Source: a virus (Duplodnaviria; Caudoviricetes). From it: 57,863 nucleotides of DNA. The position numbers and the translations under genes were made by a program. The stretch spans positions 1-57,863 of the IMG/VR virus record IMGVR_UViG_3300037191_001144, one strand, 5' to 3'. This document shows positions 16,579 through 47,798 of the stretch, one piece after another; within the stretch, counting starts at the first letter, position 1, and the number at the start of each line of letters is the position of its first letter. A model generated the notes under the pieces. That model made no database searches. It was not told the DNA's origin and was given only the letters and a program-made list of their open reading frames with translations.

Positions 16579-17061
16579 ATGAGAAAAGAAAGAGAAGGGA
16601 TAGTCCGCCAGAACTATAATCGAATAGAACCTAATAACGACTACCTAAAATATTACCGAGTAGTGAGGGGGTGGGCCAAGGCACAGTACGGACTCGGGAC
16701 CGCAGACCTAGAGATGTTATACTTCCTACACAGCGAGCAGGTATTTAAAAAGGAAAACTTTAAAGAGTACGAGCAGATGATGAGCTGGGATAAGAATAGG
16801 TTTCAGAGGCTACTACGGGAGGGGTGGATACAGACGTGGAGAGAAGGAAGAAGGGGACAGGCCGCACTGTACGATATCTCTCACAAGGGGAGGGCCGTAG
16901 TAAATACTATATACAGAAAACTTAACGGACAAGAGATAGCGGAAACCCAGATAGGGAATCCGCTATTCAAAACAGACGTGACCTATATGAGAAAAATATA
17001 TAGGAACGCAGTACGGGAGATGAATAAATTTATAAGACAACGACGACGTCGCGCTCTGTAA
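16579..17061 (+). CDS. Putative winged-helix DNA-binding protein
   Basis: Start reassigned to ATG 16579; MarR-like pattern RLLREGWIQ...ALYDISHKGR. Confidence 0.5.
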   Translation: MRKEREGIVRQNYNRIEPNNDYLKYYRVVRGWAKAQYGLGTADLEMLYFLHSEQVFKKENFKEYEQMMSWDKNRFQRLLREGWIQTWREGRRGQAALYDISHKGRAVVNTIYRKLNGQEIAETQIGNPLFKTDVTYMRKIYRNAVREMNKFIRQRRRRAL

Positions 17062-19409: not shown

Positions 19410-19537
19410 CCCGAACAAGACTCACAGTCCTCAGGAGACTCAGTGCTACATACAGTCTCCCCAGATAAGATCTTGTCGTCCTGCTCCTTTAACTTCTTCT
19501 GATCTAAGAACAGAGGAGCGTCCAGGTCCTTGATCAT
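19406..19537 (-). CDS. 43-aa peptide ending in a CxxC tail (not in ORF track)
   Basis: MIKDLDAPLFLDQKKLKEQDDKILSGETVCSTESPEDCESCSG; ATGA-coupled on both sides. Confidence 0.65.
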   Translation of the reverse strand: MIKDLDAPLFLDQKKLKEQDDKILSGETVCSTESPEDCESCSG

Positions 19538-19716
19538 AAAGGCTTACGCATCTCAGCTAACTGGATGCCCTCAGCAATGCACTCAACCTTGTACTGGTGC
19601 TTGCGGTTCTTACGGACACGAGCAGCCATAGCAATGCCCGTCTCTCCATCAGGTCTGTTGTTTATGAGGCGACCGTCTTGGACAGTCAAGCCTGGTGTGT
19701 AGTTCTTATGTATCAT
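19534..19716 (-). CDS. Hypothetical protein
   Basis: 60 aa; -7 box TATCTTTG (19721-19728) 4 nt before ATG. Confidence 0.65.
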   Translation of the reverse strand: MIHKNYTPGLTVQDGRLINNRPDGETGIAMAARVRKNRKHQYKVECIAEGIQLAEMRKPL

Positions 19717-20181
19717 GTAGCAAAGATAGTGAAAATTTTTTTACGAGATATCTGGAAGTTGAGGGTTCTAGGTGATGTGACAGGCTGTGTGCCTCATATG
19801 AAAGTCGATGTTGATTCCGATGGGGGTCTTCGGTTTCAGAATTTCTTGTGGATTGTTTCAGGATTCCGCATAGCCTCGCGCCCTCTGTCTATGGTCTCTG
19901 TCTGTGCGCCCTATGTACGCTACGTCTCACGCATCCCCGAGCATTAAGTGCAGTAGTAATGGTATAGGTCTCACGCCCCGTATCCCGCCCCCTGAAGGGG
20001 GTAAACAAGGGAGGAAGGTGTACACAACCTCTCCTTAACACCTCCCCGACCCCTCACCTCACAAAATACTTTCAGGTAAGACATCTCTCTGTATCCCCTA
20101 TCTATGCTCATTCTACGCACATTGAATAAACTATTTTCGAAAGTTTCTTGCACTCATAGCATCAATACCCATTCTGTGAAC

Positions 20182-20189
20182 TATATTTG
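20182..20189 (+). promoter_or_regulatory. Putative early promoter -7 element (TATATTTG)
   Basis: TAnnTTTG immediately upstream of the first + strand early gene; -33 element unclear. Confidence 0.55.
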
Positions 20190-20217
20190 CACAAACGTTA
20201 AACAAATCATATACACC

Positions 20218-20289
20218 ATGCCTATACTACTACTCATCACTACCATCTTCACAATAATCGCATTCATTATTTCATTCATCACAGATTAA
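20218..20289 (+). CDS. 23-aa membrane peptide
   Basis: MPILLLITTIFTIIAFIISFITD after an A/C-rich leader. Confidence 0.4.
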   Translation: MPILLLITTIFTIIAFIISFITD

Positions 20290-20300
20290 TACACAACACA

Positions 20301-20552
20301 ATGACTATAACTGCCCACAACAAGATGCACCAGAGCAATGTCAACAAGGCTACGCAATGGTTAGAGAAGCACAACACATTCAATGCAGAGCGAGACCTAA
20401 TCGAGGATAGCTTAGAAGGTTATCCTGACGAGGATACTGCTTGGAGACGCATCAACAAGAAGTGCGAGGATTCATACGACAAGTACTTGTGCTATATGGA
20501 TGAGCTACCAAAGCGTGAGCAAGACCAAATAACCAAATCAGAATTATACTGA
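20301..20552 (+). CDS. Early hypothetical protein
   Basis: 83 aa, AATACACAACACA-ATG leader. Confidence 0.7.
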   Translation: MTITAHNKMHQSNVNKATQWLEKHNTFNAERDLIEDSLEGYPDEDTAWRRINKKCEDSYDKYLCYMDELPKREQDQITKSELY

Positions 20553-20602
20553 GTAACACTGACGAGTCCTTACTGGACGAAACGTCGAGAGACGTCTGTT
20601 AC
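20553..20602 (+). ncRNA. Type I hammerhead ribozyme HH1 (cleaves after GUC, C20596)
   Basis: GUAACA-CUGACGA-GUCC(UUACU)GGAC-GAAA-CGUC(GAGA)GACG-UC-UGUUAC: full catalytic core and three stems. Confidence 0.93.
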
Positions 20603-20626
20603 ATTTATTCATCAATACACAACACC

Positions 20627-20875
20627 ATGAACAAATCCGAAGAACTAAACTACAAACTGCATCTAGACCGAATTGACGTGTGCTACAAGGTAGACGCAAA
20701 AGGAAGACCATATTACCAAGAACTTTTCCACGAGATGATATCTTGCATTATTGATGCGGAGCTATCAACTACTGAGGAGAACAGAGAGCTAAGGAAAGCG
20801 CTTAAGGTTGCTACTATTCAGATGAAAATTCAAGACCTTGAGAACGAACTTGACACCTTAACAATCACTGAGTAA
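20627..20875 (+). CDS. Early hypothetical protein flanked by HH1 and HH2
   Basis: 82 aa; stop TAA lies inside HH2 stem I. Confidence 0.7.
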   Translation: MNKSEELNYKLHLDRIDVCYKVDAKGRPYYQELFHEMISCIIDAELSTTEENRELRKALKVATIQMKIQDLENELDTLTITE

Positions 20876-20921
20876 CACTGACGAGACTTCAATAGTCGAA
20901 ACGCTGAGAAGCGTCTGTTAC
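20872..20921 (+). ncRNA. Type I hammerhead ribozyme HH2 (cleaves after GUC, C20915)
   Basis: GUAACA-CUGACGA-GACU(UCAAU)AGUC-GAAA-CGCU(GAGA)AGCG-UC-UGUUAC; stems II and III covary with HH1. Confidence 0.93.
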
Positions 20922-20948
20922 AAATTTTATTCACTAATACACAATACA

Positions 20949-21173
20949 ATGAACAATTTTAGAGTAGTAAGAACGAGAATGATTGACATCGATAATGTAC
21001 ACATAGACATACACTTTGGAAGTGATGACAAAATAGTCGCATCAGGTCAGTACAACATCCGTACCAATTGGGCACACGTTACTCGTGAGGAGGAGTATGA
21101 ACGTATGCTTGGCGATGATTGGGAGGACCAGATGCAAGAGGCCATCGAAGAGAGGACGATAGAGATAGGTTAA
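20949..21173 (+). CDS. Early hypothetical protein
   Basis: 74 aa after the conserved leader. Confidence 0.7.
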   Translation: MNNFRVVRTRMIDIDNVHIDIHFGSDDKIVASGQYNIRTNWAHVTREEEYERMLGDDWEDQMQEAIEERTIEIG

Positions 21174-21179
21174 CCAACA

Positions 21180-21226
21180 AGCGGAGTCAGTGCGTGACTC
21201 GAACGGATTCGCTCCCGTTCTCCGCT
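21180..21226 (+). ncRNA. 47-nt three-way-junction, tRNA-elbow-like RNA, copy B1
   Basis: AGCGGA-GUCA(GUGCG)UGAC-UC-GAACGG(AUUCGCUC)CCGUUC-UCCGCU; covaries with B2 and B3. Confidence 0.8.
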
Positions 21227-21255
21227 CTAATTATTATTCACTAATACCCAATACA

Positions 21256-21438
21256 ATGAACGATTTAATTACAATTCAAGGCTTACAAGATGCTCTCAAC
21301 CTTTCAATGAGAGAAGTGAAAGACCTAAGAGATAAGTTAGAGATTACGGAAAAGTATCTCCATAACTATGTTATCCAAGCAGAAAGGACCATAGACACCC
21401 TGATGAAGCCTTATAGCGAGGCAGTACAAACCAAGTAA
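21256..21438 (+). CDS. Early hypothetical coiled-coil protein
   Basis: Start reassigned to ATG 21256 after the conserved leader; stop inside HH3 stem I. Confidence 0.7.
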   Translation: MNDLITIQGLQDALNLSMREVKDLRDKLEITEKYLHNYVIQAERTIDTLMKPYSEAVQTK

Positions 21439-21484
21439 CACTGATGAGACCTGAATGGTCGAAACGTCGTGAGACGTATGTTAC
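21435..21484 (+). ncRNA. Type I hammerhead ribozyme HH3 (cleaves after GUA, A21478)
   Basis: GUAACA-CUGAUGA-GACC(UGAAU)GGUC-GAAA-CGUC(GUGA)GACG-UA-UGUUAC. Confidence 0.93.
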
Positions 21485-21510
21485 AAATTTTATTCACTAA
21501 TCTAATACCT

Positions 21511-21750
21511 ATGACATTACAAGACAAGATTGAACACACAACCGCGATAGCTGATGCTATCCAGCGCAGAGAGGACTACTACACCCTTGAGATTTTAATG
21601 GGTGAAAGCCACCCTTTAGGTTATAGTCCTCAGACATCAGAACTGAGACAAATCGAACTACCTGCACCACAGATTGCAGGTACGATGGTCCAGCGCAGAA
21701 GCTACGCGATGGGCAAAGCTATGGACATCCTTAACACCCTATCACTATGA
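21511..21750 (+). CDS. Early hypothetical protein
   Basis: Start reassigned to MTLQDK after the conserved leader. Confidence 0.65.
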   Translation: MTLQDKIEHTTAIADAIQRREDYYTLEILMGESHPLGYSPQTSELRQIELPAPQIAGTMVQRRSYAMGKAMDILNTLSL

Positions 21751-22022
21751 AAAAACTTTATAGTATACATAGAAAGTGTCACGCCATCTACGAAGAGTTT
21801 GGAGGATACGACTACAACGATAAGATGATTTATCAGCTACGCGGACTCGACGCTGACATCGAAGAGTGTAGCGAGTGTATGGAAGAGTTGTCCAGCCAAA
21901 GAGAAAGAGAGGTACTATACAAAGGGGCTCTTGCTAACGCAGACGCTACTCTCCTATGGTTTGAATGGGTGAAGAAGATGATGGTCCTTAAATCAAAAGA
22001 GCCATCTGCCATCTTTGGTTAG
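21747..22022 (+). CDS. Early hypothetical protein
   Basis: 91 aa, ATGA-coupled. Confidence 0.65.
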   Translation: MKKLYSIHRKCHAIYEEFGGYDYNDKMIYQLRGLDADIEECSECMEELSSQREREVLYKGALANADATLLWFEWVKKMMVLKSKEPSAIFG

Positions 22023-22029
22023 ACCTACA

Positions 22030-22076
22030 AGCGGAGGTAGTGCGTACCTCGAGATGATTCGCCTCGTCTCTCCGCT
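22030..22076 (+). ncRNA. 47-nt three-way-junction RNA, copy B2
   Basis: AGCGGA-GGUA(GUGCG)UACC-UC-GAGAUG(AUUCGCCU)CGUCUC-UCCGCU. Confidence 0.8.
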
Positions 22077-22105
22077 CTAATTATTATTCACTAATCTAAT
22101 ACAAT

Positions 22106-22261
22106 ATGAATTTAGGATACATAGAACACAGAAAGGGCAAGTACTCTGTCCTCGTAGACATTATAGATTTAGGGCCTTTCGGAATGTCGCCTTGCTTCAG
22201 CAAAGGCTTTGACACACGAACAGAGGCAGAAGAACACTCGAACAAATTAAATTTAAAATGA
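22106..22261 (+). CDS. 51-aa early protein (not in ORF track)
   Basis: MNLGYIEHRKGKYSV... directly after the conserved leader. Confidence 0.6.
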   Translation: MNLGYIEHRKGKYSVLVDIIDLGPFGMSPCFSKGFDTRTEAEEHSNKLNLK

Positions 22262-22410
22262 TGACTACACAAGAGAAATTCGAATACACAAGAGGTTTGG
22301 AGAAGCAAATCGAAAAGCAAGAAGCATTAATCGAACACCTTAGAAAGACCATACTTGCTTACTCAGAAAGAATGGAAACTATAACTAAAATCAAAAACCT
22401 ATTAAAATGA
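22258..22410 (+). CDS. 50-aa early protein (not in ORF track)
   Basis: MMTTQEKFEYTRG...; ATGA-coupled on both sides. Confidence 0.55.
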   Translation: MMTTQEKFEYTRGLEKQIEKQEALIEHLRKTILAYSERMETITKIKNLLK

Positions 22411-22646
22411 AATACAAATCAGTATACGCAGTACACCACCTAAGCCATCTACTTGGCGATTGTGAGACCGATCTATTTTTCTCAGAGGCTGACGCGAGAG
22501 CGTTCTTTCTTAAGCTAATGATGGAGGTCGAAGACTCTTCAGACGAGGTTGAGATACTAACCGACGAAGCAGATGAATTGTACTACTGCAATGAGTCTTC
22601 AGGAGAGTACATCAGAATCGTAATAGAACAAATTAAAATCAAATAA
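22407..22646 (+). CDS. Early acidic hypothetical protein
   Basis: 79 aa, ATGA-coupled. Confidence 0.65.
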   Translation: MKYKSVYAVHHLSHLLGDCETDLFFSEADARAFFLKLMMEVEDSSDEVEILTDEADELYYCNESSGEYIRIVIEQIKIK

Positions 22647-22652
22647 AACACA

Positions 22653-22740
22653 TACACGTAATCTGTGGTGGTTCGCAGATGGATTGTTACTCTTTACGCA
22701 TAGAGAATAGCAATGGGGTTCGACTCCCCTACGTGTACCA
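22653..22740 (+). ncRNA. 8/4 tRNA-like RNA C1, ending in CCA
   Basis: Acceptor UACACGUA/UACGUGUA, T arm GGGG(UUCGACU)CCCC, 7-bp D-like arm with GG loop, elongated anticodon-like arm. Confidence 0.7.
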
Positions 22741-22766
22741 ATTAATATTCACTAATACATAATACA

Positions 22767-23059: not shown

Positions 23060-23275
23060 ATGGAAGAGAAATTTAGCGACTGCTGTGGAGTCTCCTCTAG
23101 CGAGGAGGATATCCTACGCGATACTTGTCCTGACTGCAAGGAACATTGCGAGTTTAATAACGTAGCACACACGTGCGTCAATTGTGGAGACACAGAAGTA
23201 GAGGTTGAGGGTCAACCTTGCTCAATAGAATGCCACCGAGAGTATTGGGGCGAAATGAACAGAGATGAAAGATAA
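23060..23275 (+). CDS. Small Cys-rich, zinc-finger-like protein
   Basis: SDCC, CPDCKEHC, CVNC, CSIEC; start reassigned to MEEKF. Confidence 0.65.
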   Translation: MEEKFSDCCGVSSSEEDILRDTCPDCKEHCEFNNVAHTCVNCGDTEVEVEGQPCSIECHREYWGEMNRDER

Positions 23276-23483
23276 CAATATGGAATTAATGGACAGAATA
23301 ATAGCCTATGAAGAGGGCAACATCGACGAAGCTGGTATCCTTCAGCTATTTGCGGAGTTAATCAAGTCAGGAATGGCTTGGTCTCTTCAGGGTCACTACG
23401 GCAGAACTGCGAAAGCCTTAATAGACGCAGAATACATAAGTGAGGATGGACAAACCATCTTCTACCAAGACATAGTACAATGA
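23265..23483 (+). CDS. Small phage protein (LIKSGMAWSLQGHYGRTA motif)
   Basis: 72 aa with a distinctive motif seen in many phages (recollection). Confidence 0.7.
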   Translation: MKDNNMELMDRIIAYEEGNIDEAGILQLFAELIKSGMAWSLQGHYGRTAKALIDAEYISEDGQTIFYQDIVQ

Positions 23484-23645: not shown

Positions 23646-23692
23646 AGCAGTGGTAGTGCGTACCGAGAAGAGATTCGCCCCTCTTCACTGCT
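23646..23692 (+). ncRNA. 47-nt three-way-junction RNA, copy B3
   Basis: AGCAGU-GGUA(GUGCG)UACC-GA-GAAGAG(AUUCGCCC)CUCUUC-ACUGCU; compensatory changes in P1 and P3. Confidence 0.8.
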
Positions 23693-24396: not shown

Positions 24397-24506
24397 TACA
24401 CGTAGCATTGTAGGTTTGCAAAAACTTCAGGATACAATGTAGGCGTTCCCTCAATAGGTTTTCTGAATTTCCTATACGGGTGCGAGGTTCGACTCCTCTA
24501 CGTGTA
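24397..24506 (+). ncRNA. 8/4 tRNA-like RNA C2 with enlarged interior
   Basis: Same acceptor as C1 (UACACGUA/UACGUGUA); T arm GAGG(UUCGACU)CCUC; internal stems GCAUUGUA/UACAAUGU and a GCAA tetraloop hairpin. Confidence 0.68.
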
Positions 24507-27532: not shown

Positions 27533-27617
27533 ATAGTAAGGCACGACTTGGAGGATGCTGGGTGTAGCGATTGTTGGTTCAGGAGTTACACACATGGGTT
27601 CGATTCCCACTTACTAT
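27533..27617 (+). ncRNA. 8/4 tRNA-like RNA C3
   Basis: Acceptor AUAGUAAG/CUUACUAU, T arm UGGG(UUCGAUU)CCCA, internal stem GUGUAGC/GUUACAC. Confidence 0.65.
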
Positions 27618-36674: not shown

Positions 36675-39600
36675 TCATTCTCTTATAGATTCTAAGTACT
36701 CTTCCCTTTGCTCGTCTTGATACGCCTTCTCCTCGGCTTCGTACTCCTCCTGTTCGGGGTCGTAGTATAGCTCCTCAAGGTATGCCTCTAACTCCTGCTC
36801 CTCTTTGTACTGTTCAGGGAAATACTCTTTCATCTCTTTCTTTGTGGTTTTCTTCTTCTTCTTTTTCTTCTTCTTTTCTTCAGGTCCATCTATAACGTAG
36901 TCGCTATACTGAAGGACTCGTAGCATAGCCTCCTTGGGTTCCATCCCCCCCTCGGTAAGCTTAGTGAAGTTGTTAAAGATCTTCTCTATATTTGAGGCTG
37001 GGATTCCAAACATAGCAAGGCCCTCGTTTATTGCTTTGCGTGTCCACTTCTCCTTAGTCTCAGGGGTCTTGGCCTTCGCTGCGTTATTCATATATAGGGC
37101 TACGTTCTTTGGCATATCCAGGGCAGGGATAGCTGGCATGTTAAATGCCCACGGCTTTCCTTGTATAGCGTCAGCTACCATACCTATAACATCCCCTGCT
37201 ATAAATAGGGAGTTGAAGTTACCAATTATCGCGGCTCTCATCATATCCTCCTCGTCCTCCTCGTCCCAGTCAGATCCAAGAGGGAACCCTAGGGATACCC
37301 ACTGGAAGAACATAGGCATAACAAAGTGGTAGGTGAGTATGGTTCTCGCATTACTAATCAACGTCCCCTTCCCCTCCTTACCGCCTGATCTAATAATTCT
37401 AGAAAGGTTTCTAAGAGACCTAAAGACTTTACGGTTGTATTGTTTTGGCGTAGTCATGAACATGTTAAGAACCCTCATGTACCCGTCACCCGTTTGATAA
37501 AGGTCTTTGTTCTGAATGTCTGATGACTGCTGTGTGTTCTTAGTGTCCTTCTCAAACCTGCGTATAGCATAGTCGATAGCCTGCTGCTCCGTAGCTCCAG
37601 GGTTATTCTTTTTAAACTGTGCCTTATGGTAAGAGTAGTTCGGCATACCCCCAATATATATCGCGGCCTTGTCCCCGAACTTAGTGGTCCACATAGCCAT
37701 ATTTATAAGAGCATTTTGAATGGGTTGAGGCATGAATTTCTGAACCCTCTCTGGAGCGTATGTCTCTATGGCCTTCATGATACTCTGGTAGTTACGGTCG
37801 TCCATGTATACTGAGTTAGCCTTGATCTCTTTAAAGATCTGTCTCATCTGTACTATATTAACAGCTGCGTACTTTACCCAGTTTGCGTATCCTATATCAC
37901 TTGCGTAGGTGAAGAACGAGGTAAGCTGCTTTATCATAACGACAGGGTTAAGTCCTAGGCGAGAGGTAATGAATGCGCTATTCATAAAGTTCACAAACCT
38001 TGCCCCCTTGTTTACCTTACCCTTGTTTGCTACACGCTCTATGCTAAGTCGAACCCCCTCTAGCACATCCGATCCGTATATTGCTTTAATAGTGGCGGCC
38101 ATCTTAGGGTTTAGGAGAAGCTTATTGATATAGTTAATAGGCTCTGCCATGCCCGCGAGGTGGTTCATCTCCTCTATGTAGAACATTAGGTTTGCCGTTC
38201 CGTCTACCCCTTCCTTGATAGGGTCTTTGGTCTGCACTCGATACTTCGAGGACCCTGCTGTTACTACAGTGTTGGACCCTTTGTTTGCCAGCAGGTCGAG
38301 GTCTTGTATTACCTGGCCATCATGCATCAAGGGTCCTGCATAGAACTCGTTCCATGGCATGTCTGTTTTGTATACCTTTAGGTACGCCTCATTAAAGATA
38401 GGGTATACCATAGGGAAGAACTCGTCCACCTGCCAGTCTGCAAATGCCTTTGTCTCTGGGTCTAGTGTGGATGTAAGTTCCCCCATGATACGTTCGTAAT
38501 CTTTCCCAAACCTAGACTCGAAAGAGGGGTGGTTAGATGGGTCCTTAAATTGATTGTATAGATAGTACGCCTCGCCCTGAGACATCGATATCTCCTGGTT
38601 TCTCTTAGCCTCTCTTAGGTCTACCTTATTCTCAGACGTAGGGTTGTCATCGTAGGTTTTCTGAGCCTTATCAACGGCAGCCTGGTCTATATATATTCCC
38701 GTCTTGTTAACGTTAGCTAATGCCCCTACCTTAAACTTCCACAACTTCCCCCACAACTCCTTCATCTTGCCCTCTACTGAGCGCTTCATCATAAGGTTAT
38801 TGGCCTTCTCTACTCGTGTCCCCTCGTCGATCCTGTCCACCACCTGCTGATCTGTGATGCCACCGAATATCTCTCCTGGGAGTTTAGATATTTTATTTAT
38901 CATCCCTCCCAGATCCTGCTGCTTAAAGAAGTAGTTCTTTACCATGTCGGTAAAGCTCCTTAGCACTCTTACTAATCTGTTTTGTGTTTCTTTTGCTCGG
39001 GCTCTGTTCTTCTTCGCTAATACTTTCAGGTCCACCGCATCGAAATTTATGTCCCCTTTCTCGTGGATAACTTTGCCATCGTCGTCTAGTACGTCCTCCT
39101 CGTATAGAGGGAGGTCCTCCCCTGTAATGTCCTTATGTATCTCCTTATAGCTCTCGTCAAACTCTGCCTTCTCCTTAGCTAAGGTCTCCTTAAGGTTGCT
39201 TCGTCCCCCGTCTACTAGTCCTTTTATAGCTGCGTATGCGCGGTCTAAAGCAATCGCCTTATTAGGGTCATTGTCCTCCATCAACATAGCATTATTGAGA
39301 TTAATAGCTGCGATCAATCCCTCCATCTGCTGCCTCTCTTCTGGGGTGGTCTCCATCTTGTTGGCTAATTCGTTGAACTCTTCCAGGAGCTGAACGTTTC
39401 TATCATTAACCTCCTTTGCGAGAACTGTCTTAGCAAACTTAATATTAGAGATCAAGTTCTTCACAACTCTTCGCGTTGTATTATCTATGCTTGTCCCCTT
39501 TAGTCTTCCGCTCTGCTTACTCTCATATGGCTTAAGGATTTTGCTTATAGCGCGAGAGAGTATCCCTACATTTTTCTTTGTAGAAAGCTGTATCACCTCA

Positions 39601-42600
39601 TGCATTAGGCCGTTCATATCCTTACTTGTTGCTTGGGCTATCCTACGTGCTAGGCTCAGGGCCTCCTGCTTAGAGTACACTGTCTTCGGTAGCGTCTGAC
39701 GCATGAATCGTAGTAGCTCTCTCTTCGCCTCCTGTAGTTGGCGGGCCCCTTGGTTACGGAAACGTACCATCTGGCGTAGCTTAGTTAAAGCCTGACGCAT
39801 GTTCTTCGTTGGTCGTACACCTAAAGTTTTTTGTAGCTCGTTCACCATCTCTGCCTGGAGTGTGGCGGCGTCTTTCATTGCTACGTCCTTGCCCTTTACC
39901 TTGCGGGTATCTGCTAGTTTTTTATATGCAGGGTGTTCCATTAGGCGCTCGATAGCTAGGTCCATTATCTCCTGGTCAGAAAGCTTCGCCTTCTTCGTCG
40001 CGTTAGACTTCTCTAGCTTTGTCTCAAAGGCTCCTACCGCCTTGTCTACTTCTACCTTCGCGGATATATTCTCTAGTCTTTTTATTTCGTATAGCTCCTT
40101 AACCTTCGCGTCAACCTCGCTCTTTGAGCGGGGGTTTACCCTCATCTTGTTTGTCTTCTCTACTCGCTCTCGGATCTTACGTTTTATCTCACGCATCTCG
40201 TCACCCGTCTTAACCTTAGCCTTCGTTAGCTCCTTCCTCTTCTCTCTTACCTTAGTCTTTAGTTGAGCCGCGGTCTCCTTCGTCCTCTTGACGTTAGCCT
40301 TTGTCTCCTTTGCTATAAAGTCTTGTATGTTTTTAAACAAACGCAATCCTTCTAGCAGGCCTCCCTCTACCTCAGCAAAACTCTTTGGCAGTTTGGAGAA
40401 TAAATCTACATCAAACTCTAGAAGTTTTTTAACTACATTCTTTGGGATCTTCTTAATCCTGTTAAGGTAACTACCTATAGCTGAGTCCTTTAGTCCCGCT
40501 CCTCTTCCCTCTGTTATCACCTCTTGTATAGAGGCGTCAGCTCCGTCAACATCTAGCTGGAACTTTACTGGGCTACCCTCCTTGTCTAGGACAGGGTCAG
40601 TAAACGTCTCACCCGTAGACCTGTCAGCGGCTACAACTTTAGCCTTACCCTTCTTGTCTGTGACAACCTTCCCCTTTACAGTGAAGCTTGAGTCATCCAT
40701 AGATAAGTACTCTGGGTTCTTAGCGTATACTAATCCTCCTATCTGTATAATTTCTTCTGCCGATCCTAAAGGTTGCCCCGTGCTACGGTCCCAGAAAGAT
40801 GAGTGTCTGAATGGATTCATTCCCACCTGCACCCAGTCAGAATTATTTGCAACCTCCTCAATCATGGACTGAGCATTAGTTCCTACCTCCTCTACCGTGT
40901 TGCCTTCTATAGCTACGGGCTCCCCAAACATCTTAGCGAAGGTCGTCTTGCCCTGTGCCCCTGAAGCTATGTTCGCAGCTATACGTGCGTCTGTTTCAAA
41001 GGTTACGTTCTTAAGTCTTACGGCTGGACCATATGATATAGGCTTCCCCTTAGAGCTAGGCTCATGTACTGTCACGATCCATGCGTTGGATCTAAGGTAT
41101 GCGGGGATGTCTAGTCTAGCCCCTACTCTTTTTAATTTCTTACCTGTATCTGGGTCTACTAATGGAGCTAGGATCTTCTCCGATTGGTTACGGGTCAGGG
41201 CCTTATCCATTCTCTCCCTAGACACGGGTGCAAAGAACTCCTCTATGGGTCCTATAGGGCTGTTCTTAGCCACTATCTTTCTGTAGTCAGCGTTGGTTAT
41301 CTCTCCTCGTAGAAGACGGCTTACAGCCTCCTCTACCTTAGAGGTTCTCTTCGCTATCTTAGACTCCTTCATGTTCATCTCAGGGGTCTCCTTCCATGCG
41401 AGCTGGTACTTTGCTCTACCTGATGGCCCTACTCTAGGAGTTTTATATGCGCCCCCATATGCTGAGTGTGATCTACTCTGCTTAAGTCTTTGAGGGTTAG
41501 ATACTTTAGATTTAAAGTTCCATCCCTTAAGTTTCTCTATGTCAATAGGCTGAGTCGTAGACCTTATCTCATCTATCTTCTTCCATGAGTCGTCCTGTCT
41601 CTGAGTCTTACGTGTGATAGTCTCGCTATCCGTGTGCGCCGTAAAGTTAGAGAGGTAGTCCCACTCCCCGTCATTAGTTGCTTTCCTCCAGAAGTTTACA
41701 AAGTGTTGCCCGTTATTAAACTTCCGCTCTCTAGTTACACGGTCTCCCCATGTGCTCTCCTCCTCCCACGTTACAGTAAATTCTTTCTTAGGAAGCTTCG
41801 CTGGGTTTAGTGGGTCGGTTATATTATTGTTACTTATGTAAGCGTCAGGTAGGATGTCTCCCTTCTTGTATTTAGTGTCCTCCTCTAGCTTAGACAGGTC
41901 ATTACCCTGGTCGTCTAGTTGGAACTTTACTTTAGCTCCCTTAACCTGTATGTCTTTAGGAACCTTTGCTACGTACTGTCCTCCCATAGCAGAACGTGCC
42001 GCCAGAGGTTTAGTTCTTTCTCCTAACGGAGTTTGGTTTGCTTCAAGTGAGGCAGGCTTTGCATTTGGGTATATTTTTCTTACGTCAACAGCCTTGTCAA
42101 ATACCATCAATGGTTTCCCTGGGATCGCCCAAGGGTAAGCTGGGTGGTACCCTGGGTCTCCTTCCTTTAACTTAAAAGGCTTCGCCCCTTTCTCAAACTC
42201 TATCGCTGAGACAACGTCTCCATACCCCACACCTTTTAGAGATGGGTCATTAACTACCTCAGATATATTTGTTGGTACACTTTTTAAAGGAGTAAAAGGA
42301 GAGATGTTAAACTTTTCATACGACTCTTTGCTTAAAAATGTTTTGGCAAAACTCCCTCGTTGCTCAAAATTGAGAGGAGACAATAAGGTTTGAAGTTCTT
42401 CTATACTACTTATCTGACTCGGTAGCCCTTTCTTTTTCAGGCCCTTTGCTACCGTCGTTAGCTTTAACTTTCTGTTGATATAGTTAATCATCTCTTTTGG
42501 AGACGCACCATTCTCAATAGCATATGCCACCTCAGCGTTTAGGTAGTCATAGAACTGCATGTTCCCCGTGATTCCGTCAGGGGCCTGGGACATTACAAGG

Positions 42601-45600
42601 CCTACCCCATCGCTGTTGTTTGCTTTGTTAATAATTTTATTTGCAGAGTCTTCTGTTGAGAATACCCATGCCGCATTACTCCCTTGAGACTGAGCTCCGT
42701 AAGGGTATAAGAACCCTCCATTAAACATATATTTAAGTCCCGAAGGGCTCTGTGACATACCGTATGTGGCTTGGTCAGCCGCAAAAACAAAAGCATTTAT
42801 TCCTTCTAACTTATTGACAGATCCTCTCTTGATGCTACTCATATCAATCCCACCCCTATCTAAGTTGAATTTAGTTTTCGTTTTTAAATCTATAGATGGC
42901 CCATCAGAGTCTGGGATGTTTGTAGGGATAGGTCCTTCGGCATCCTCAACAGCCTCTCCTGGTACTACTTCCCCTCCTCCTAATTGATTCTTAGTTCGTC
43001 CCTTCTCTAAGGCATTTAGTTTATTAGTCACATCAACCTCCTTCATCCCTGAGGTGTCACCTAACGCATCTATCTTAGCCTTAAGGTCAGCCTTTACTTC
43101 TTGCTGCACCTCTACTAAGTATGCGTCTCTCTGCTCCTCACTCATCCCATCCATAGCAGACTGGTCTACTACGACGGTTGAGTATATAGACGAGGTGCCT
43201 CTGCTCCCTGGCAGTACGTTGCCTGCACTATCCGTAGTGGCTCTAGCTTGAACTATAGTCTCGCCTTCTACTGCAGGAGAAACTTCAGTGGTTTTTCTGC
43301 CTAGCAATCCTGACTTCTTAGTCACAGCTTCCTTACCCTTAGTCTCAGTAACTACTAGAGACTTACCTGGAGAGTACTCGCCACCCTTATCATGTCTATT
43401 CTCTAGGCCGCTGCGGTATAAACTCTTTCCCGCAGGCTTATCGCCTTGATACTTATACCCGTCACCTAGGTTGGTACTACCTATAACCTTGCTCTTAGGT
43501 GCAGCAGGAGCTGCCTCCTTAGTCTTTTTAGTCCCGTCCTCTTTAAGCTCTTGACGCTTAGTAGTGTCATTGATATCGAACTCCTCTTTCGCGGATGTCT
43601 CCTTTGGCTTAGGGGCTACCTTCTTTTTTGGAGCAGCCTCTTTAGCTCTCGCTTTAGGAGCCACCTTCTTATCAACTGGTTTAGCATATTGTTCTAAAGT
43701 TTCTAAGTCAGAATCTGTAATCTCTTCTCCCGATATAGTCTTGCGGGCTATAGTATTTAATAGGTCTATGACGGCCTGGTTCTTAGACGCGGCATCCCCT
43801 TTGTTGCTGAAGACTCTGTCTAAAACAGTTGGGCTTAACCCTAAAGTTTTAGAGATCTTCTTGAGCCATGTAACGATCGCACTCTTAGTCTCAGAGTTTG
43901 CCTCAGAGTAATGCTCTGCTAGTATAGCAGTAACCTCCGCTAACTGCTCCTCGTTTAACACCTCTATAAAACCCTCTGACTCATTGTTCGCTTCCTCTAT
44001 CTGCTCAAGAAGAGAGTCTAGTTTAGCTTGACCCTCAGGCGTTGAGTTAACTTCTTGTGCTTCAGCCAGTTGGTTGTACTCGCTTTGTAAAGAAGCCGAT
44101 CTCTCACCCGCCTGCTGAGAAGCCGTCTCATATAAGAGTCTAAATTTCTCAAGTCTTTTAAGGATATCTTTATCTGTAATGCTATTCATCACAGTCTCTA
44201 GCATGTCCTTAGTTGCCAGTTGAATACGTGAATCCGTACCTAGCTTTTCGCTTAGGACGGCATGGAATATCTCGTGTGATATAGTCCCTAGGGTAGCGGT
44301 TGAAAGGTTTATATGTATGGTATTACCTTTATACATTCCCTTACCTCTTCCCCCTAGTTTCTTATAGCTTTCAGGAGAGCTATGTAAGACTATCTTAGTA
44401 TCAGGAAGGATCTTAGCTAAAGCTTTAGCGGATGTGTTAGCGATCTTAACTACAGCCCTCTCCAGTAGAGACCTCTTCTTCTTAACGGTAGGGTCTGAGA
44501 CTATACCAACGTTAGCCTCTAGCTTCTCTACCTCCAACTCCGTACCGTCAGGAGTCTCTATCTTAGTCTTCTCCCCTACCTCTATAGTCTCATCTGTTTC
44601 CCCCTCTGCCTTTCTCTTCCCTGTATCACCACCAAAGAGGCTCTCAAGTATAGCTACCTCCTCTTGCTCCGAGGTATCCTCACCCGTGACGTCCGTAGTT
44701 TGTTCGGTGCCGTCCTGGGTAGCGTCCCCGTCGGTGTCTCCGCCTCCCACTGCTTCGCCATCTCTGGTTTGTTCTGGTGCATCCACCTTCTCTGTGCTTG
44801 ACTCTTGAACGGCATCTTGTTTTTGTTTTAATAATTTTTTACTTAATTTTTTTCCTTTCCCGTCTTGAGTGTCTTCAAACTGATCAATAAACTTAATGTC
44901 TTTTACAACTGTAACATCTTGAGGAACGGAAGGTCCGTCTTTAATATTTTTTAACACCACGGCATCAAATCCTTCTGCAAAAGCCTCTTGAATAATAGCG
45001 TTTTTATCCATAGCAGAGCTGGAACTTTCTCCATTAAACTCTACCTCTTTAATATTTTCCGTGTTTAATACAGCGGAATATATAGTGGGTTCAATACCTT
45101 TAAGTTTACCTAAGCCTAACATATTAAGTAACTGGCCCATCCCGTCACCATTAACTTCGTTAGCATAAAACCCAGCAACACCAGGATCATTGCTGAAAAA
45201 TATACCTTTGGGAGATCCCCCGTCAGCATTAGAGCCCACCTTGCTCATGTCAAACGTATTAAACTTACGAGGAGAGCCCGTGAAAAGAAGTTTTTTCCCT
45301 CCCTTTTTATATACAGGGGCTTTATCTTTTCTGGGGCTAGCCTCTGCTTCTACAGTAATAACGTCCGCGTCTGCCTCTACGTCTGCCTCTACATCTGCTT
45401 CTACACCTACCTCTTCGCCTACTTCTTTTAGGCTCTCGTTGATAGCGTCTATCTCCGTCTGCTGTTTAGTTACAAGCTGTTTATCTGAAGCGTCTACCTG
45501 CTTCTGTAGTTTTGCCCTACGTAGTAGAAGGCCTAACGCTTTTTTCTTTTGATCCCCCGTATAGTCGCTAGGGATCTGAGACGTCATACCAGCAATACTC

Positions 45601-47798
45601 TCTGCCTCCTGTAAGGCTCTCTTACCCTGAAGGGAGGTCAATTCCCCTGATACTATCTTCTGCTTTATGCTCTCTATGTATGCCTCTTTCAAAGGCCCCT
45701 CCTGCATGACCGCCTCGAAGGCCGCGAAGGTCTCGTCAGATATCTCTGTTAAGTTGTTCCCCACAACCCCAGATACTACAGCTCCAGGCGTACCCATAGC
45801 AAAACCTCCTATAGCCTCTGCCGCACCCGCCTCTAGTACCTGAATGAAGGCGTCCCCTAAGGTCTCAGGGGTCTGGAATAGGTCCTGATCCTTCATCGTA
45901 TTGTAGATCTTCTTCATAGTTATGTCACTCACCTCCTGTAGGGCTCCTGTCTCAGCCTCCGCCAAACCAGAAGACGCCATCTTTAATAGGAACCTCGAGC
46001 CTCCTCGCTCTACCTCGTGCTCTACAAACTCAGCAAAGGTTCTTGTAGTAGAGGATACCCCAAACTTTTTTAACATACTAAGGGTCATCCCTGACATTGC
46101 TGATGTTCCTCCGATAGCTTTTGTTAGACCCACCTTCTCTAGTATACCAGCAACAATACCTATAGGTGCTGCGATAGCTAGCTTCTCAAACTCACTGACA
46201 CCCTCAAAGAGGGGGTTGTTCTCCGTCTCTGCGCTTACCATGTCTACACCCTGTAATATAAGGCCAGGGATCCCTGTAACCATAGCAGGGATAGAAGAGG
46301 CTACTCCGTACAACGCGCTCTGCACAAACCCTGCTGAGTCCGTATACTCTTTCGAGGTGCCTGATCCCATACCCTGGGCCACAGCAGTTCCCCGCTCACG
46401 TATTAATCTTTGTGTACCTTTACGGTCCTGCGACATAAAACCGCTAGCCGCCTGAGAAAACTCATTAACTTCTCCCCCTCCTCTATCTAGTCCCTTAGCG
46501 TGTTTAGCCCACTTATCTCCTACTGTTGTTGACCCTAATTTTGAGCTCATAATACCCGCCACTACGTCTACTGATGCGCCATATACACCAGAAAATAAAG
46601 ACCCAAAACCCTCCTGAACACTATTCACGACGCCTCCCATAAAGCTCCCCTCCTCTGACCTCATCGATACGTACTCTCCTACCATGCGGTCTAGTTTCTT
46701 TCCTTGAAACTTCATGTCTTCTATCGCCCCCTCAAGCTCCCCGCCTTCTGCTTTTATGTTTGCTGATTCAACTAACCACTGGTCGTATGCTACCTGGTTC
46801 CTTGCTAGCTCTGCCTGTCCCATCCTAGAAAACTCCTTACCCAGTCTATCCGAAGCTACTTTCCTCTCAGTAAAGTCTTTTATATTTTTCTTTAGGTCTC
46901 TCGTTCCTGTCTGCATGGAGAGCATTCTCTCCTCATAGTCTTTCTTCCCAAGGATCTTTTTCTCATTACCTAAAGCCTCTGACTCTATTCTATCTAGTCC
47001 TGTCTTCTCAATAGGCTTGTTCTGCTGCATAAACTTCTTTAACTTCTTAGACTCTGACGCGTCTTTAGCGTCCGTCCAGTTATCTAAAGAAATCTCTATA
47101 GTGTCTACCCCATTTGGAGATGTTACTTTCATAAAGTCTCCTGTTCCTCCCGTCTCCTCAAACTTAAAACCATACTCCTTAAAGTGGTAATTCATTTCCC
47201 CTACTACCTCCTCCTCCTCTAGGTCAGCGATGCTTCCCCCTACTACATAGTCTCTATCTCTAAAGTTTAGTCCTAGCTTACTCTCTTGCTCGTGCGCTCT
47301 ATTATCTATTATATCTAAGGACCTATCGAACTCGCTTCTCTGATCTTTAGCATCGTCCTCTGCGGCTAGCGCTACAGCTACTCTTTCGTCTGCGTCAAAC
47401 TGTGTCTCGCCCTCCTGAAGGGCAACAAGGTTAGGGTCCGCTACTGCGACCCCCTCCTGTGGCGCCGTTACAGGCGTGTTCTGGTATGCATCTAACTCAG
47501 CCTCAGCTTCTTGCGGAGCGGAAGCATCCGATGAGCCAGACTCTGGCTGAGGTTGCGATACTGATTCCGTACCTTCCTCCACCACAGTGGACTCGGAAGT
47601 TCCATCTTTTTTTTTTACTCCCATTAACTCTTCATACTCCTCAATACTCTTGGCGTACCCTCCCGTTTTAAATATAGTATATGAGTCCTCAAGGGCTTGA
47701 GGGTTAGAGTTGATAAGCTCTACAAACTCCTCATAAGACCTAGAGTACCCCCCCGTCTTAAACAGTTCATACGAATCTTTAATTGCTTGCTCGTTCAT
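36675..47798 (-). CDS. Giant 3707-aa polyvalent virion/ejection protein with ADP-ribosyltransferase-like and zincin-like domains
   Basis: Last gene of the ejection-protein block; ART-like LFTGS...GIFFS...A..Y...GFDAVV; HEIFH at 44262-44276. Confidence 0.75.
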   Translation of the reverse strand: MNEQAIKDSYELFKTGGYSRSYEEFVELINSNPQALEDSYTIFKTGGYAKSIEEYEELMGVKKKDGTSESTVVEEGTESVSQPQPESGSSDASAPQEAEAELDAYQNTPVTAPQEGVAVADPNLVALQEGETQFDADERVAVALAAEDDAKDQRSEFDRSLDIIDNRAHEQESKLGLNFRDRDYVVGGSIADLEEEEVVGEMNYHFKEYGFKFEETGGTGDFMKVTSPNGVDTIEISLDNWTDAKDASESKKLKKFMQQNKPIEKTGLDRIESEALGNEKKILGKKDYEERMLSMQTGTRDLKKNIKDFTERKVASDRLGKEFSRMGQAELARNQVAYDQWLVESANIKAEGGELEGAIEDMKFQGKKLDRMVGEYVSMRSEEGSFMGGVVNSVQEGFGSLFSGVYGASVDVVAGIMSSKLGSTTVGDKWAKHAKGLDRGGGEVNEFSQAASGFMSQDRKGTQRLIRERGTAVAQGMGSGTSKEYTDSAGFVQSALYGVASSIPAMVTGIPGLILQGVDMVSAETENNPLFEGVSEFEKLAIAAPIGIVAGILEKVGLTKAIGGTSAMSGMTLSMLKKFGVSSTTRTFAEFVEHEVERGGSRFLLKMASSGLAEAETGALQEVSDITMKKIYNTMKDQDLFQTPETLGDAFIQVLEAGAAEAIGGFAMGTPGAVVSGVVGNNLTEISDETFAAFEAVMQEGPLKEAYIESIKQKIVSGELTSLQGKRALQEAESIAGMTSQIPSDYTGDQKKKALGLLLRRAKLQKQVDASDKQLVTKQQTEIDAINESLKEVGEEVGVEADVEADVEADADVITVEAEASPRKDKAPVYKKGGKKLLFTGSPRKFNTFDMSKVGSNADGGSPKGIFFSNDPGVAGFYANEVNGDGMGQLLNMLGLGKLKGIEPTIYSAVLNTENIKEVEFNGESSSSAMDKNAIIQEAFAEGFDAVVLKNIKDGPSVPQDVTVVKDIKFIDQFEDTQDGKGKKLSKKLLKQKQDAVQESSTEKVDAPEQTRDGEAVGGGDTDGDATQDGTEQTTDVTGEDTSEQEEVAILESLFGGDTGKRKAEGETDETIEVGEKTKIETPDGTELEVEKLEANVGIVSDPTVKKKRSLLERAVVKIANTSAKALAKILPDTKIVLHSSPESYKKLGGRGKGMYKGNTIHINLSTATLGTISHEIFHAVLSEKLGTDSRIQLATKDMLETVMNSITDKDILKRLEKFRLLYETASQQAGERSASLQSEYNQLAEAQEVNSTPEGQAKLDSLLEQIEEANNESEGFIEVLNEEQLAEVTAILAEHYSEANSETKSAIVTWLKKISKTLGLSPTVLDRVFSNKGDAASKNQAVIDLLNTIARKTISGEEITDSDLETLEQYAKPVDKKVAPKARAKEAAPKKKVAPKPKETSAKEEFDINDTTKRQELKEDGTKKTKEAAPAAPKSKVIGSTNLGDGYKYQGDKPAGKSLYRSGLENRHDKGGEYSPGKSLVVTETKGKEAVTKKSGLLGRKTTEVSPAVEGETIVQARATTDSAGNVLPGSRGTSSIYSTVVVDQSAMDGMSEEQRDAYLVEVQQEVKADLKAKIDALGDTSGMKEVDVTNKLNALEKGRTKNQLGGGEVVPGEAVEDAEGPIPTNIPDSDGPSIDLKTKTKFNLDRGGIDMSSIKRGSVNKLEGINAFVFAADQATYGMSQSPSGLKYMFNGGFLYPYGAQSQGSNAAWVFSTEDSANKIINKANNSDGVGLVMSQAPDGITGNMQFYDYLNAEVAYAIENGASPKEMINYINRKLKLTTVAKGLKKKGLPSQISSIEELQTLLSPLNFEQRGSFAKTFLSKESYEKFNISPFTPLKSVPTNISEVVNDPSLKGVGYGDVVSAIEFEKGAKPFKLKEGDPGYHPAYPWAIPGKPLMVFDKAVDVRKIYPNAKPASLEANQTPLGERTKPLAARSAMGGQYVAKVPKDIQVKGAKVKFQLDDQGNDLSKLEEDTKYKKGDILPDAYISNNNITDPLNPAKLPKKEFTVTWEEESTWGDRVTRERKFNNGQHFVNFWRKATNDGEWDYLSNFTAHTDSETITRKTQRQDDSWKKIDEIRSTTQPIDIEKLKGWNFKSKVSNPQRLKQSRSHSAYGGAYKTPRVGPSGRAKYQLAWKETPEMNMKESKIAKRTSKVEEAVSRLLRGEITNADYRKIVAKNSPIGPIEEFFAPVSRERMDKALTRNQSEKILAPLVDPDTGKKLKRVGARLDIPAYLRSNAWIVTVHEPSSKGKPISYGPAVRLKNVTFETDARIAANIASGAQGKTTFAKMFGEPVAIEGNTVEEVGTNAQSMIEEVANNSDWVQVGMNPFRHSSFWDRSTGQPLGSAEEIIQIGGLVYAKNPEYLSMDDSSFTVKGKVVTDKKGKAKVVAADRSTGETFTDPVLDKEGSPVKFQLDVDGADASIQEVITEGRGAGLKDSAIGSYLNRIKKIPKNVVKKLLEFDVDLFSKLPKSFAEVEGGLLEGLRLFKNIQDFIAKETKANVKRTKETAAQLKTKVREKRKELTKAKVKTGDEMREIKRKIRERVEKTNKMRVNPRSKSEVDAKVKELYEIKRLENISAKVEVDKAVGAFETKLEKSNATKKAKLSDQEIMDLAIERLMEHPAYKKLADTRKVKGKDVAMKDAATLQAEMVNELQKTLGVRPTKNMRQALTKLRQMVRFRNQGARQLQEAKRELLRFMRQTLPKTVYSKQEALSLARRIAQATSKDMNGLMHEVIQLSTKKNVGILSRAISKILKPYESKQSGRLKGTSIDNTTRRVVKNLISNIKFAKTVLAKEVNDRNVQLLEEFNELANKMETTPEERQQMEGLIAAINLNNAMLMEDNDPNKAIALDRAYAAIKGLVDGGRSNLKETLAKEKAEFDESYKEIHKDITGEDLPLYEEDVLDDDGKVIHEKGDINFDAVDLKVLAKKNRARAKETQNRLVRVLRSFTDMVKNYFFKQQDLGGMINKISKLPGEIFGGITDQQVVDRIDEGTRVEKANNLMMKRSVEGKMKELWGKLWKFKVGALANVNKTGIYIDQAAVDKAQKTYDDNPTSENKVDLREAKRNQEISMSQGEAYYLYNQFKDPSNHPSFESRFGKDYERIMGELTSTLDPETKAFADWQVDEFFPMVYPIFNEAYLKVYKTDMPWNEFYAGPLMHDGQVIQDLDLLANKGSNTVVTAGSSKYRVQTKDPIKEGVDGTANLMFYIEEMNHLAGMAEPINYINKLLLNPKMAATIKAIYGSDVLEGVRLSIERVANKGKVNKGARFVNFMNSAFITSRLGLNPVVMIKQLTSFFTYASDIGYANWVKYAAVNIVQMRQIFKEIKANSVYMDDRNYQSIMKAIETYAPERVQKFMPQPIQNALINMAMWTTKFGDKAAIYIGGMPNYSYHKAQFKKNNPGATEQQAIDYAIRRFEKDTKNTQQSSDIQNKDLYQTGDGYMRVLNMFMTTPKQYNRKVFRSLRNLSRIIRSGGKEGKGTLISNARTILTYHFVMPMFFQWVSLGFPLGSDWDEEDEEDMMRAAIIGNFNSLFIAGDVIGMVADAIQGKPWAFNMPAIPALDMPKNVALYMNNAAKAKTPETKEKWTRKAINEGLAMFGIPASNIEKIFNNFTKLTEGGMEPKEAMLRVLQYSDYVIDGPEEKKKKKKKKKTTKKEMKEYFPEQYKEEQELEAYLEELYYDPEQEEYEAEEKAYQDEQREEYLESIRE

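Follow-up and report, generated by a model that had tools for sequence, protein, structure and literature searches.

The hammerhead motifs of a tailed phage, IMG/VR virus record IMGVR_UViG_3300037191_001144, were analysed together with those of related phages. The record was examined over its whole length (57,863 bp, estimated completeness 94%; referred to below as the window) and contains three hammerheads, HH1, HH2 and HH3, which on the evidence of their sequences are type I self-cleaving ribozymes. They lie at the very start of a rightward block of genes that is presumably the early transcription unit, referred to below as the early block. The three hammerheads probably act as self-cleaving punctuation that divides a polycistronic early transcript into linear mRNAs, the uniformity of their stem I being maintained at the level of the DNA and any circular RNAs being a minor side reaction.

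Three type I hammerheads in the window

The three hammerheads, with the open reading frames (ORFs) upstream of them, are as follows.

20553-20602, plus strand: HH1, type I hammerhead; C17 is at 20596 with the predicted cut after it; the stop of ORF 20301-20552 ends 1 nt 5' of stem I.
20872-20921, plus strand: HH2, type I hammerhead; C17 is at 20915 with the predicted cut after it; the UAA stop of ORF 20627-20875 lies within the stem I 5' strand.
21435-21484, plus strand: HH3, type I hammerhead; A17 is at 21478 (a GUA site) with the predicted cut after it; the UAA stop of ORF 21256-21438 lies within stem I.

The conserved core was complete in each hammerhead and consisted of CUGA(C/U)GA, GAA and the A15.1-U16.1 pair that closes stem III, while position 17 was C, C and A in HH1, HH2 and HH3, respectively (H17, never G). 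Each hammerhead has an open stem I of 6 bp and two loop-closed stems, stem II of 4 bp and stem III of 5 bp, and the loop of stem III was GNGA in all three. An earlier note on this DNA had described stem I as identical in the three hammerheads, and GUAACA/UGUUAC was indeed present in each of them. Stems II and III vary among the three copies by compensatory changes, while stem I is invariant. A motif search of the window gave three matches, exactly HH1-HH3, compared with 0.02 expected, and three or more matches were obtained in none of 100 shuffles. Comparison with Rfam Hammerhead_1 (RF00163) gave 31.0 bits for HH1 and 27.6 bits for HH2, both below the gathering score of 34, and HH3 was not listed; at gathering scores no Rfam family was matched anywhere in the window. 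The longer stem III accounts for an 8-nt insertion relative to the Rfam Hammerhead_1 model. A separate covariance model was built from HH1-HH3 and five relatives, and a search of the window for a fourth copy using this model with the filters off revealed none. From established hammerhead chemistry it follows that the ends of the predicted products would be a 5'-OH and a 2',3'-cyclic phosphate.

In nearly every copy, both in the window and in the relatives, stem I is exactly 6 bp long and is flanked by an A opposite an A, and loop II follows a U-N-R-N-U-like pattern. The flanking A/A and the loop II pattern may form the tertiary contact that gives fast ribozymes.

Hammerheads in related phages

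A set of 78 related loci was collected by means of a conserved neighbouring gene of the DUF7417 family (window 23265-23483). The covariance model identified 41 hammerheads in 21 of these loci, with two to four copies in 14 of them. All 41 model matches were on the gene strand, and an independent pattern scan in which stem I was not fixed gave 40 matches on the plus strand and none on the minus strand. Among 26 distinct relatives 99.7% of cells were paired and 12 of the 15 pairs had changed on both sides, giving a covariation score that was reached by none of 500 shuffles. The pairing and covariation in 26 distinct sequences therefore indicate that these are real, selected ribozymes.

Scans of whole records gave the following numbers of hammerheads, the last two phages being listed with position and strand.

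G001 (complete): one hammerhead.
G006 (complete): one hammerhead.
G003: two hammerheads.
G009: three hammerheads.
G008: four hammerheads.
MW202828: no hammerhead.
Flavobacterium phage vB_FspP_elemoA_13-1A (MT497065.1): one strong and one weak match, hammerhead at 16696-16753, minus strand.
Cellulophaga phage phi18:3 (KC821620.1): one hammerhead, 21904-21958, minus strand.

None of the five records scanned for this purpose gave a cultured phage with two or more strong hammerheads. In the hammerhead of phi18:3, stem I is GAUUAA/UUAAUC, and an A-rich leader and an AUG come after it. Neither this hammerhead nor that of elemoA_13-1A is annotated in the stretches of the two records that were inspected. 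Both phages have been cultured, which makes them possible experimental systems.

Variants of the core were also observed, at L040 5017-5066 (identical in L041, L043 and L050), L040 4571, L047 4333, L049 4790 and L052 4985. One of them has the core CCGACGA (C for U4), and several contain an extra U after A9 (CUGAAGAU, CUGAGGAU). These variants are otherwise well-formed and are considered as candidate ribozymes only.

Stem I is constant within genomes and variable between clades

The stems were compared in 12 dereplicated genomes with at least two hammerheads (the window, L020, L022, L040, L042, L046, L047, L049, L051, L052, L089 and L006), in which L040 also represents the identical L041, L043 and L050, and L042 the identical L044. 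Stem I was identical in 21 of the 27 within-genome pairs of hammerheads, compared with 5 for stem II and 6 for stem III. The mean within-genome differences were 0.26 out of 6 for stem I, 1.30 out of 4 for stem II and 1.85 out of 5 for stem III, and the mean differences between the three stem I groups were 3.36 out of 6, 1.66 and 2.17, respectively. Stems II and III are therefore about as diverged within a genome as they are between clades, and stem I is a genome-specific constant. The three groups are defined by GUAACA in the window group, GGCACA in L022 and L024, and GGUUAA in the clade of L040-L052.

Adjacent hammerheads in the 12 genomes were fully cross-compatible in 17 of 19 pairs. The two incompatible pairs were found in L089 (5/6) and L006 (4/6), where both hammerheads have been kept. 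L022 has a single variant stem I, on its last hammerhead, which pairs with the upstream neighbour via a G-U pair. The complete genomes G001 and G006, each with a single hammerhead, keep the stem I of their clade, and the constancy of stem I therefore needs no partner in cis. Gene conversion of whole hammerheads was considered and rejected, as the two ends agree but the middles, made up of stems II and III, do not. Next to the stem I 3' strand is a genome-specific leader, which gives UGUUAC-AAAUUUUAUUCACUAAU in the window, UUAACC-AAAAAACAAUUG in the L040 clade and UGUGUC-AAACUUCAAA in L022.

Predicted fragments, leaders and flanking genes

Cleavage at the three sites would release two internal fragments, which contain the conserved leader motif of the early block and are followed by a further ORF.

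20597-20915, plus strand: HH1-HH2 predicted product of 319 nt, with the stem I 3' strand, a G-less 24-nt leader, ORF 20627-20875 (82 aa) and the enzyme part of HH2.
20916-21478, plus strand: HH2-HH3 predicted product of 563 nt, with a leader, ORF 20949-21173 (74 aa), the RNA element B1, a leader, ORF 21256-21438 (60 aa) and the enzyme part of HH3.
20605-20616, plus strand: conserved leader motif TTATTCAYYAAT, which recurs in the early block.
21511-21750, plus strand: first ORF downstream of HH3, family F5.

The coordinates and contents that the earlier note had assigned to the 319-nt and 563-nt fragments match the sequence and the ORF list. The hammerheads are spaced by the same 319 and 563 nt and enclose one and two ORFs. 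In the window, the distance from the stem I 3' strand to the AUG is 24-27 nt and the leaders contain no G. The motif TTATTCAYYAAT occurs six times on the plus strand of the early block (20605, 20927, 21234, 21490, 22084 and 22745), downstream of HH1, HH2, HH3, two copies of B1 and one tRNA-like structure. Across the window there were nine matches compared with 1.72 expected, six of the nine being those on the plus strand of the early block.

The position of the upstream stop codon is also conserved. Of the 43 hammerheads for which an upstream ORF was found, 36 have this stop at -12 to +7 nt relative to the point where stem I starts, so that it falls just 5' of stem I or within it, or forms the UGA of the core. 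A stop-codon constraint as the cause of the fixed stem I was rejected, as the stops may be anywhere from -12 to +7.

The window units between hammerheads hold unrelated ORFs (families f2, f3 and f4). Searches for homologues of the hammerhead-flanked ORFs gave 2 and 14 matches, all of them unnamed phage proteins, and no match to these ORFs was found in Pfam or PHROGs.

B1, tRNA-like structures and the exchange of cassettes

Besides the hammerheads (three), the intergenic structures of the early block are of two further kinds, a three-way-junction RNA named B1 (three) and tRNA-like structures (three). Their positions in the window, and those of B1 in relatives, are as follows.

21180-21226, plus strand: B1, three-way-junction RNA, inside the 563-nt fragment.
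22030-22076 and 23646-23692: further copies of B1 in the window.
L020 5132-5189; L023 3076-3133 and 2489-2558; L170 9707-9764 and 10201-10259: B1 in relatives.
L004 4636-4693 and L007 6677-6734, minus strand: B1 in relatives.
About 22652-22741, 24397-24506 and 27533-27617, plus strand: three tRNA-like structures in intergenic spacers of the early block.

B1 is built from a 6-bp outer stem, a 4-bp hairpin with the loop GUGCG, and a 6-bp hairpin with an 8-nt loop containing UUCGC. Like the hammerheads, it takes up an intergenic position preceded by a stop codon and followed by the standard leader. In seven distinct sequences 99.1% of cells were paired and 8 of 16 pairs had changed on both sides. 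No Rfam family matched B1. The outer stem and the 6-bp hairpin add up to 12 bp, like the acceptor/T minihelix of tRNA, and the two loops could pair with each other (GCG with CGC). B1 may itself be a site of processing, and could be a substrate of RNase P/Z or an undescribed ribozyme. A loose B1 pattern was present in at least 119 stretches of viral contigs, mostly by chance, and one of the 80 loci listed (L170, with two copies) matched the B1 model.

The tRNA-like structures have an acceptor-like stem of 7-9 bp and a canonical T arm (for example GGGG-UUCGACU-CCCC), as read from the folds, and the first of them ends in ACCA. ARAGORN gave no tRNA genes for these structures or elsewhere in the window. 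The Rfam tRNA-Sec model matched the first structure at 22652-22738 with 31.8 bits, below its threshold of 47, and the third structure gave a match to a T-arm fragment of tmRNA. Judged by these folds, the tRNA-like structures look like transcript punctuation and not like decoding tRNAs.

At the junction upstream of family F5 there is a hammerhead in the window and L020, and a B1 in L004, L007 and L023. This exchange, together with the occurrence of the same leader after three hammerheads, two copies of B1 and one tRNA-like structure, suggests that these are equivalent as putative punctuation elements.

The genes between the hammerheads are exchanged as cassettes. In the GGUUAA clade the space between the anchor families f7 and f20 is occupied by the hammerhead-delimited sets f21 and f19, f19 alone, f21 alone, or f24 and f25, such that f7 (upstream) is joined via a hammerhead to three downstream families and f20 (downstream) to three upstream families. 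Two types of stem II and two types of stem III are found in every possible combination, which speaks for crossovers within the hammerhead itself. A metagenome contig (L102) is 100% identical to window 19934-22644 (2.7 kb) and is collinear DNA; at 2712-2970, corresponding to window 22644-22648, it contains a 259-nt insertion with one more small ORF just before the first tRNA-like structure, and thus shows the gain or loss of a cassette between near-identical phages. The recombination tools encoded by the phage are a Sak annealing protein and an exonuclease.

Proposed role of the hammerheads and alternative explanations

In the mechanism that we favour, a polycistronic early RNA would be transcribed first, and each hammerhead would then fold locally and cut just past the stop of the upstream ORF, 21-33 nt 5' of the next AUG. 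The products would be linear single-gene or two-gene mRNAs, each beginning with a 5'-OH and the short G-less standard leader and having a 3' end capped by the hammerhead hairpins and the cyclic phosphate. B1 and the tRNA-like structures would punctuate equivalent sites, presumably via host RNases. The hammerhead and its leader would at the same time form the boundary of the early-gene cassettes, where these can enter the genome, leave it or replace one another. For a chimeric hammerhead made by recombination to be functional, stem I would have to be the same in all copies; the conserved ends would be homogenised by crossovers within them, and diversity would persist in the middles. Closure of the products into circles, by self-ligation or by RtcB, may take place as a minor, reversible side reaction and would not be the selected function.

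Several points weigh against this mechanism. That the early RNA is polycistronic, that it is cleaved and that circles are absent are all inferred, and the recombination account of stem I is deduced from mosaic patterns. Processing alone needs no uniform stem I, and a stem I that is uniform within genomes and different between clades is also exactly what end-to-end compatibility of the excised RNAs predicts. The independent cases are few because seven of the 12 multi-hammerhead genomes belong to one clade. The end-closing stem I was present in the minimum-free-energy fold given by RNAfold for both window fragments, with a probability of 0.73 for the 319-nt and 0.98 for the 563-nt fragment, and the ends of both are complementary, so that the statement of the earlier note that these ends can rebuild a hammerhead holds. 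Closure was further compared with mononucleotide shuffles of the interior (12 per fragment) for 15 fragments of up to 700 nt from 10 genomes, the 1054-nt L022 fragment, L052 and L006 being left out. The native closure was reached by 53 of the 180 shuffles, a mild native excess that does not discriminate between the explanations.

The earlier note had gone further and proposed that the ribozyme-flanked genes could become circular mRNAs by self-ligation or RtcB ligation. On this view stem I would be uniform in order that an excised mRNA can pair its own ends, rebuild the hammerhead and close into a translatable circle, either by self-ligation or through a host RtcB-type ligase. The complementary ends and predicted closure of both fragments are consistent with this proposal, as are the 17 of 19 compatible neighbours, the uniformity of stem I within genomes and its difference between clades, and the variant stem I of L022, which still pairs with its upstream neighbour. 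In addition, type I retrozyme RNAs of similar size and with the same end geometry are circularised by RtcB and self-ligate, according to the available part of the report describing them (PMC7229834). This much of the proposal stood, while circularisation itself gained no support, and it is unlikely that circles are the reason for the uniform stem I. The incompatible neighbours of L089 and L006 have been retained, and G001 and G006 keep their stem I with no partner to pair with. B1 occurs within the 563-nt fragment, and at an orthologous junction it stands in place of a hammerhead. The closure probability was at least 0.7 in nine of the 15 fragments and was low in four (0.19, 0.008, 0.001 and 0.0). 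Circular folding with RNAfold gave a probability of about 0.8 for stem I in both circles, with 0.9-0.99 for stems II and III in the 563-nt circle and 0.31-0.43 in the 319-nt circle; the predicted circles keep the active hammerhead fold and would be expected from this modelling to re-cleave and reopen. In a form of the proposal that is likewise improbable, ribosomes halting within stem I would shield the translatable circle from re-cleavage. No RNA ligase, RtcB or kinase family was present among the 63 of 71 phage ORFs that were scanned. Metagenomes were searched for the back-junction with a 27-nt stretch fitting either the genomic context or the HH2-to-leader-1 junction, and no back-junction was found, the one contig recovered (L102) being collinear DNA. 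Among RNA sequencing runs, a search with window 20100-22100 listed no match. Perreault et al. found no circles from clustered phage hammerheads, as stated in the available text of that paper (PMC3088659). The copies of stem I are identical and not merely pairable, which points to homogenisation of the DNA, and on this ground the DNA-level account fits somewhat better.

Another explanation would place the constraint on the stem I 3' strand as the obligatory first six nucleotides of the processed mRNAs, read by a phage or host factor (at the 5' end, for stability or for translation start) or forming part of a promoter, with the 5' strand following by complementarity. The genome-specific leaders conserved beside the 3' strand and the G-free leaders between stem I and the AUG would suit such a role. 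The leader that follows B1 and the tRNA-like structure lacks UGUUAC, however, and the hexamer is therefore not part of the general leader; sigma-70-like promoters were not enriched in the early block (23 matches compared with 29.8 expected), and no factor was identified. This explanation is unlikely. Less probable than either is the lack of any role, the hammerheads being relics that have lost activity or motifs that arose by chance. The Rfam scores of HH1 and HH2 under the gathering score and the lack of a listed match for HH3 would agree with this, and are opposed by the excess of motifs over the number expected per window, the intact state of all core positions, the very strong covariation among the 26 distinct relatives and the strict conservation of strand and position relative to the ORFs. 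Punctuation of the early transcript by self-cleavage, with stem I kept uniform at the DNA level, is therefore retained as the probable explanation.

The phage and its genome

The window encodes a portal, a large terminase, GroEL/GroES, the Sak annealing protein and exonuclease, and a primase-helicase, as well as a 3,707-aa protein and a 1,592-aa virion protein. The closest match to the terminase is from an uncultured podovirus record (70% identity), followed by those of Flavobacterium (Elemovirus), Cellulophaga and Tenacibaculum phages. By these matches the relatives of the window phage infect Flavobacteriia, and a CHU_C type IX secretion domain encoded in the window points in the same host direction. 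The genes of about the first 19.7 kb are directed leftward; between 20.1 and 36.2 kb they are directed rightward, small ORFs being followed by replication genes, and beyond this they are leftward again. No match to window 20200-21900 was found in the phage collection using blastn.

The divergent gene blocks are separated by about 700 bp (19410-20100) without a convincing ORF, containing C-rich and G-rich runs and hairpins (for example around 19970-20060). This is probably the early promoter or regulatory region. The 3,707-aa ORF (36675-47798, minus strand) has as its sole Pfam match ART-PolyVal (ADP-ribosyltransferase in polyvalent proteins), a weak match of residues 832-966 with 29.1 bits compared to a cut-off of 31.2. 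A neighbouring ORF contains a crAss muzzle-protein C-terminal domain.

Significance and comparison with known systems

Clustered phage hammerheads have been known since 2011 without a settled function. The locus described here and its relatives provide a cleaner system, because the type I ribozymes fit, with single-nucleotide precision, into the interval that separates a stop codon from a standard leader, and are interchangeable with two other structured RNA elements. The pattern of stem I would mean either that the excised RNAs must fit each other, as circles or through joining at the RNA level, or that the DNA copies stay recombination-compatible for the shuffling of cassettes. If circles were formed as a function, viruses that infect bacteria would make circular mRNAs by ribozyme, the first natural example in a bacterial system of protein-coding RNA circles made in this way. 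If instead recombination accounts for stem I, the ribozyme would double as a cassette boundary in phage genome evolution. In either case the elements would be ready-made natural insulator parts.

In RiboJ-type synthetic ribozyme insulators and in mitochondrial tRNA punctuation, elements that are self-cleaving or cleaved by RNase P/Z uncouple cistrons and define the 5' ends of mRNAs. The hammerheads, B1 and the tRNA-like structures differ from these in forming a natural phage system that mixes three kinds of punctuation, with a putative function.

Clustered hammerheads of phages and prophages cleave polycistronic RNAs in vitro (Perreault et al., 2011; PMC3088659). Spliced or circular products were raised in that paper and neither was detected (data not shown), as far as its available text goes, and the idea of circular products from clustered phage hammerheads is thus not new. 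As described there, the 2011 clusters resemble the window in having several hammerheads at short distances from each other on the gene strand, which flank genes of unknown function, singly or in short blocks, and they were likewise proposed to cut long phage transcripts into gene-length mRNAs (PMC3088659). The present hammerheads differ from the clusters of that account in that all are of type I, each one adjoins or overlaps the stop codon upstream of it and precedes a standard leader, and B1 and tRNA-like elements are interspersed among them (PMC3088659). They also have one stem I per genome that changes between clades, a comparison made with the clusters as described in 2011 and not with their alignments. 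In the literature on phage hammerhead circles, RtcB, related phages and circular RNAs in metatranscriptomes, supplements aside, no report was found of such circles or of a genome-wide uniform stem I.

The available part of the work on type I hammerhead retrozyme RNAs gives circularisation by RtcB of 30 to over 80%, compared with 1-3% for self-ligation in vitro (PMC7229834). As in retrozymes and viroid-like circular RNAs, at least in the portions of these reports at hand, tandem hammerheads would release a unit with a 5'-OH and a 2',3'-cyclic phosphate, here predicted, and the split halves can pair again (PMC7229834, PMC7761336, PMC5680766). The type I topology is common to metazoan retrozymes and the window hammerheads. 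In contrast to the repeated non-coding monomers of retrozymes, so far as these are described there, the units of the window are unrelated protein-coding cassettes in a double-stranded DNA phage, with no retroelement or rolling-circle features. A further difference, judged here from sequence alone, is that the predicted circles do not hide the hammerhead in an alternative fold.

A parallel at the DNA level, taken from excerpts of two papers, is with the PeSL cassettes of T4-type phages. There, small early ORFs of a hyperplastic region have short conserved motifs in the intergenic spaces beside them, and these motifs likewise mark the points at which genes are inserted, deleted or replaced between close relatives (PMC2839356, PMC4122927). 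PeSLs are promoter-terminator motifs in these accounts, whereas the boundary described here is a ribozyme and leader (PMC2839356, PMC4122927). Unlike the PeSLs as characterised in those excerpts, the boundary of the present cassettes carries a constraint at the RNA level, the pairing of stem I, which would force its copies to be uniform.

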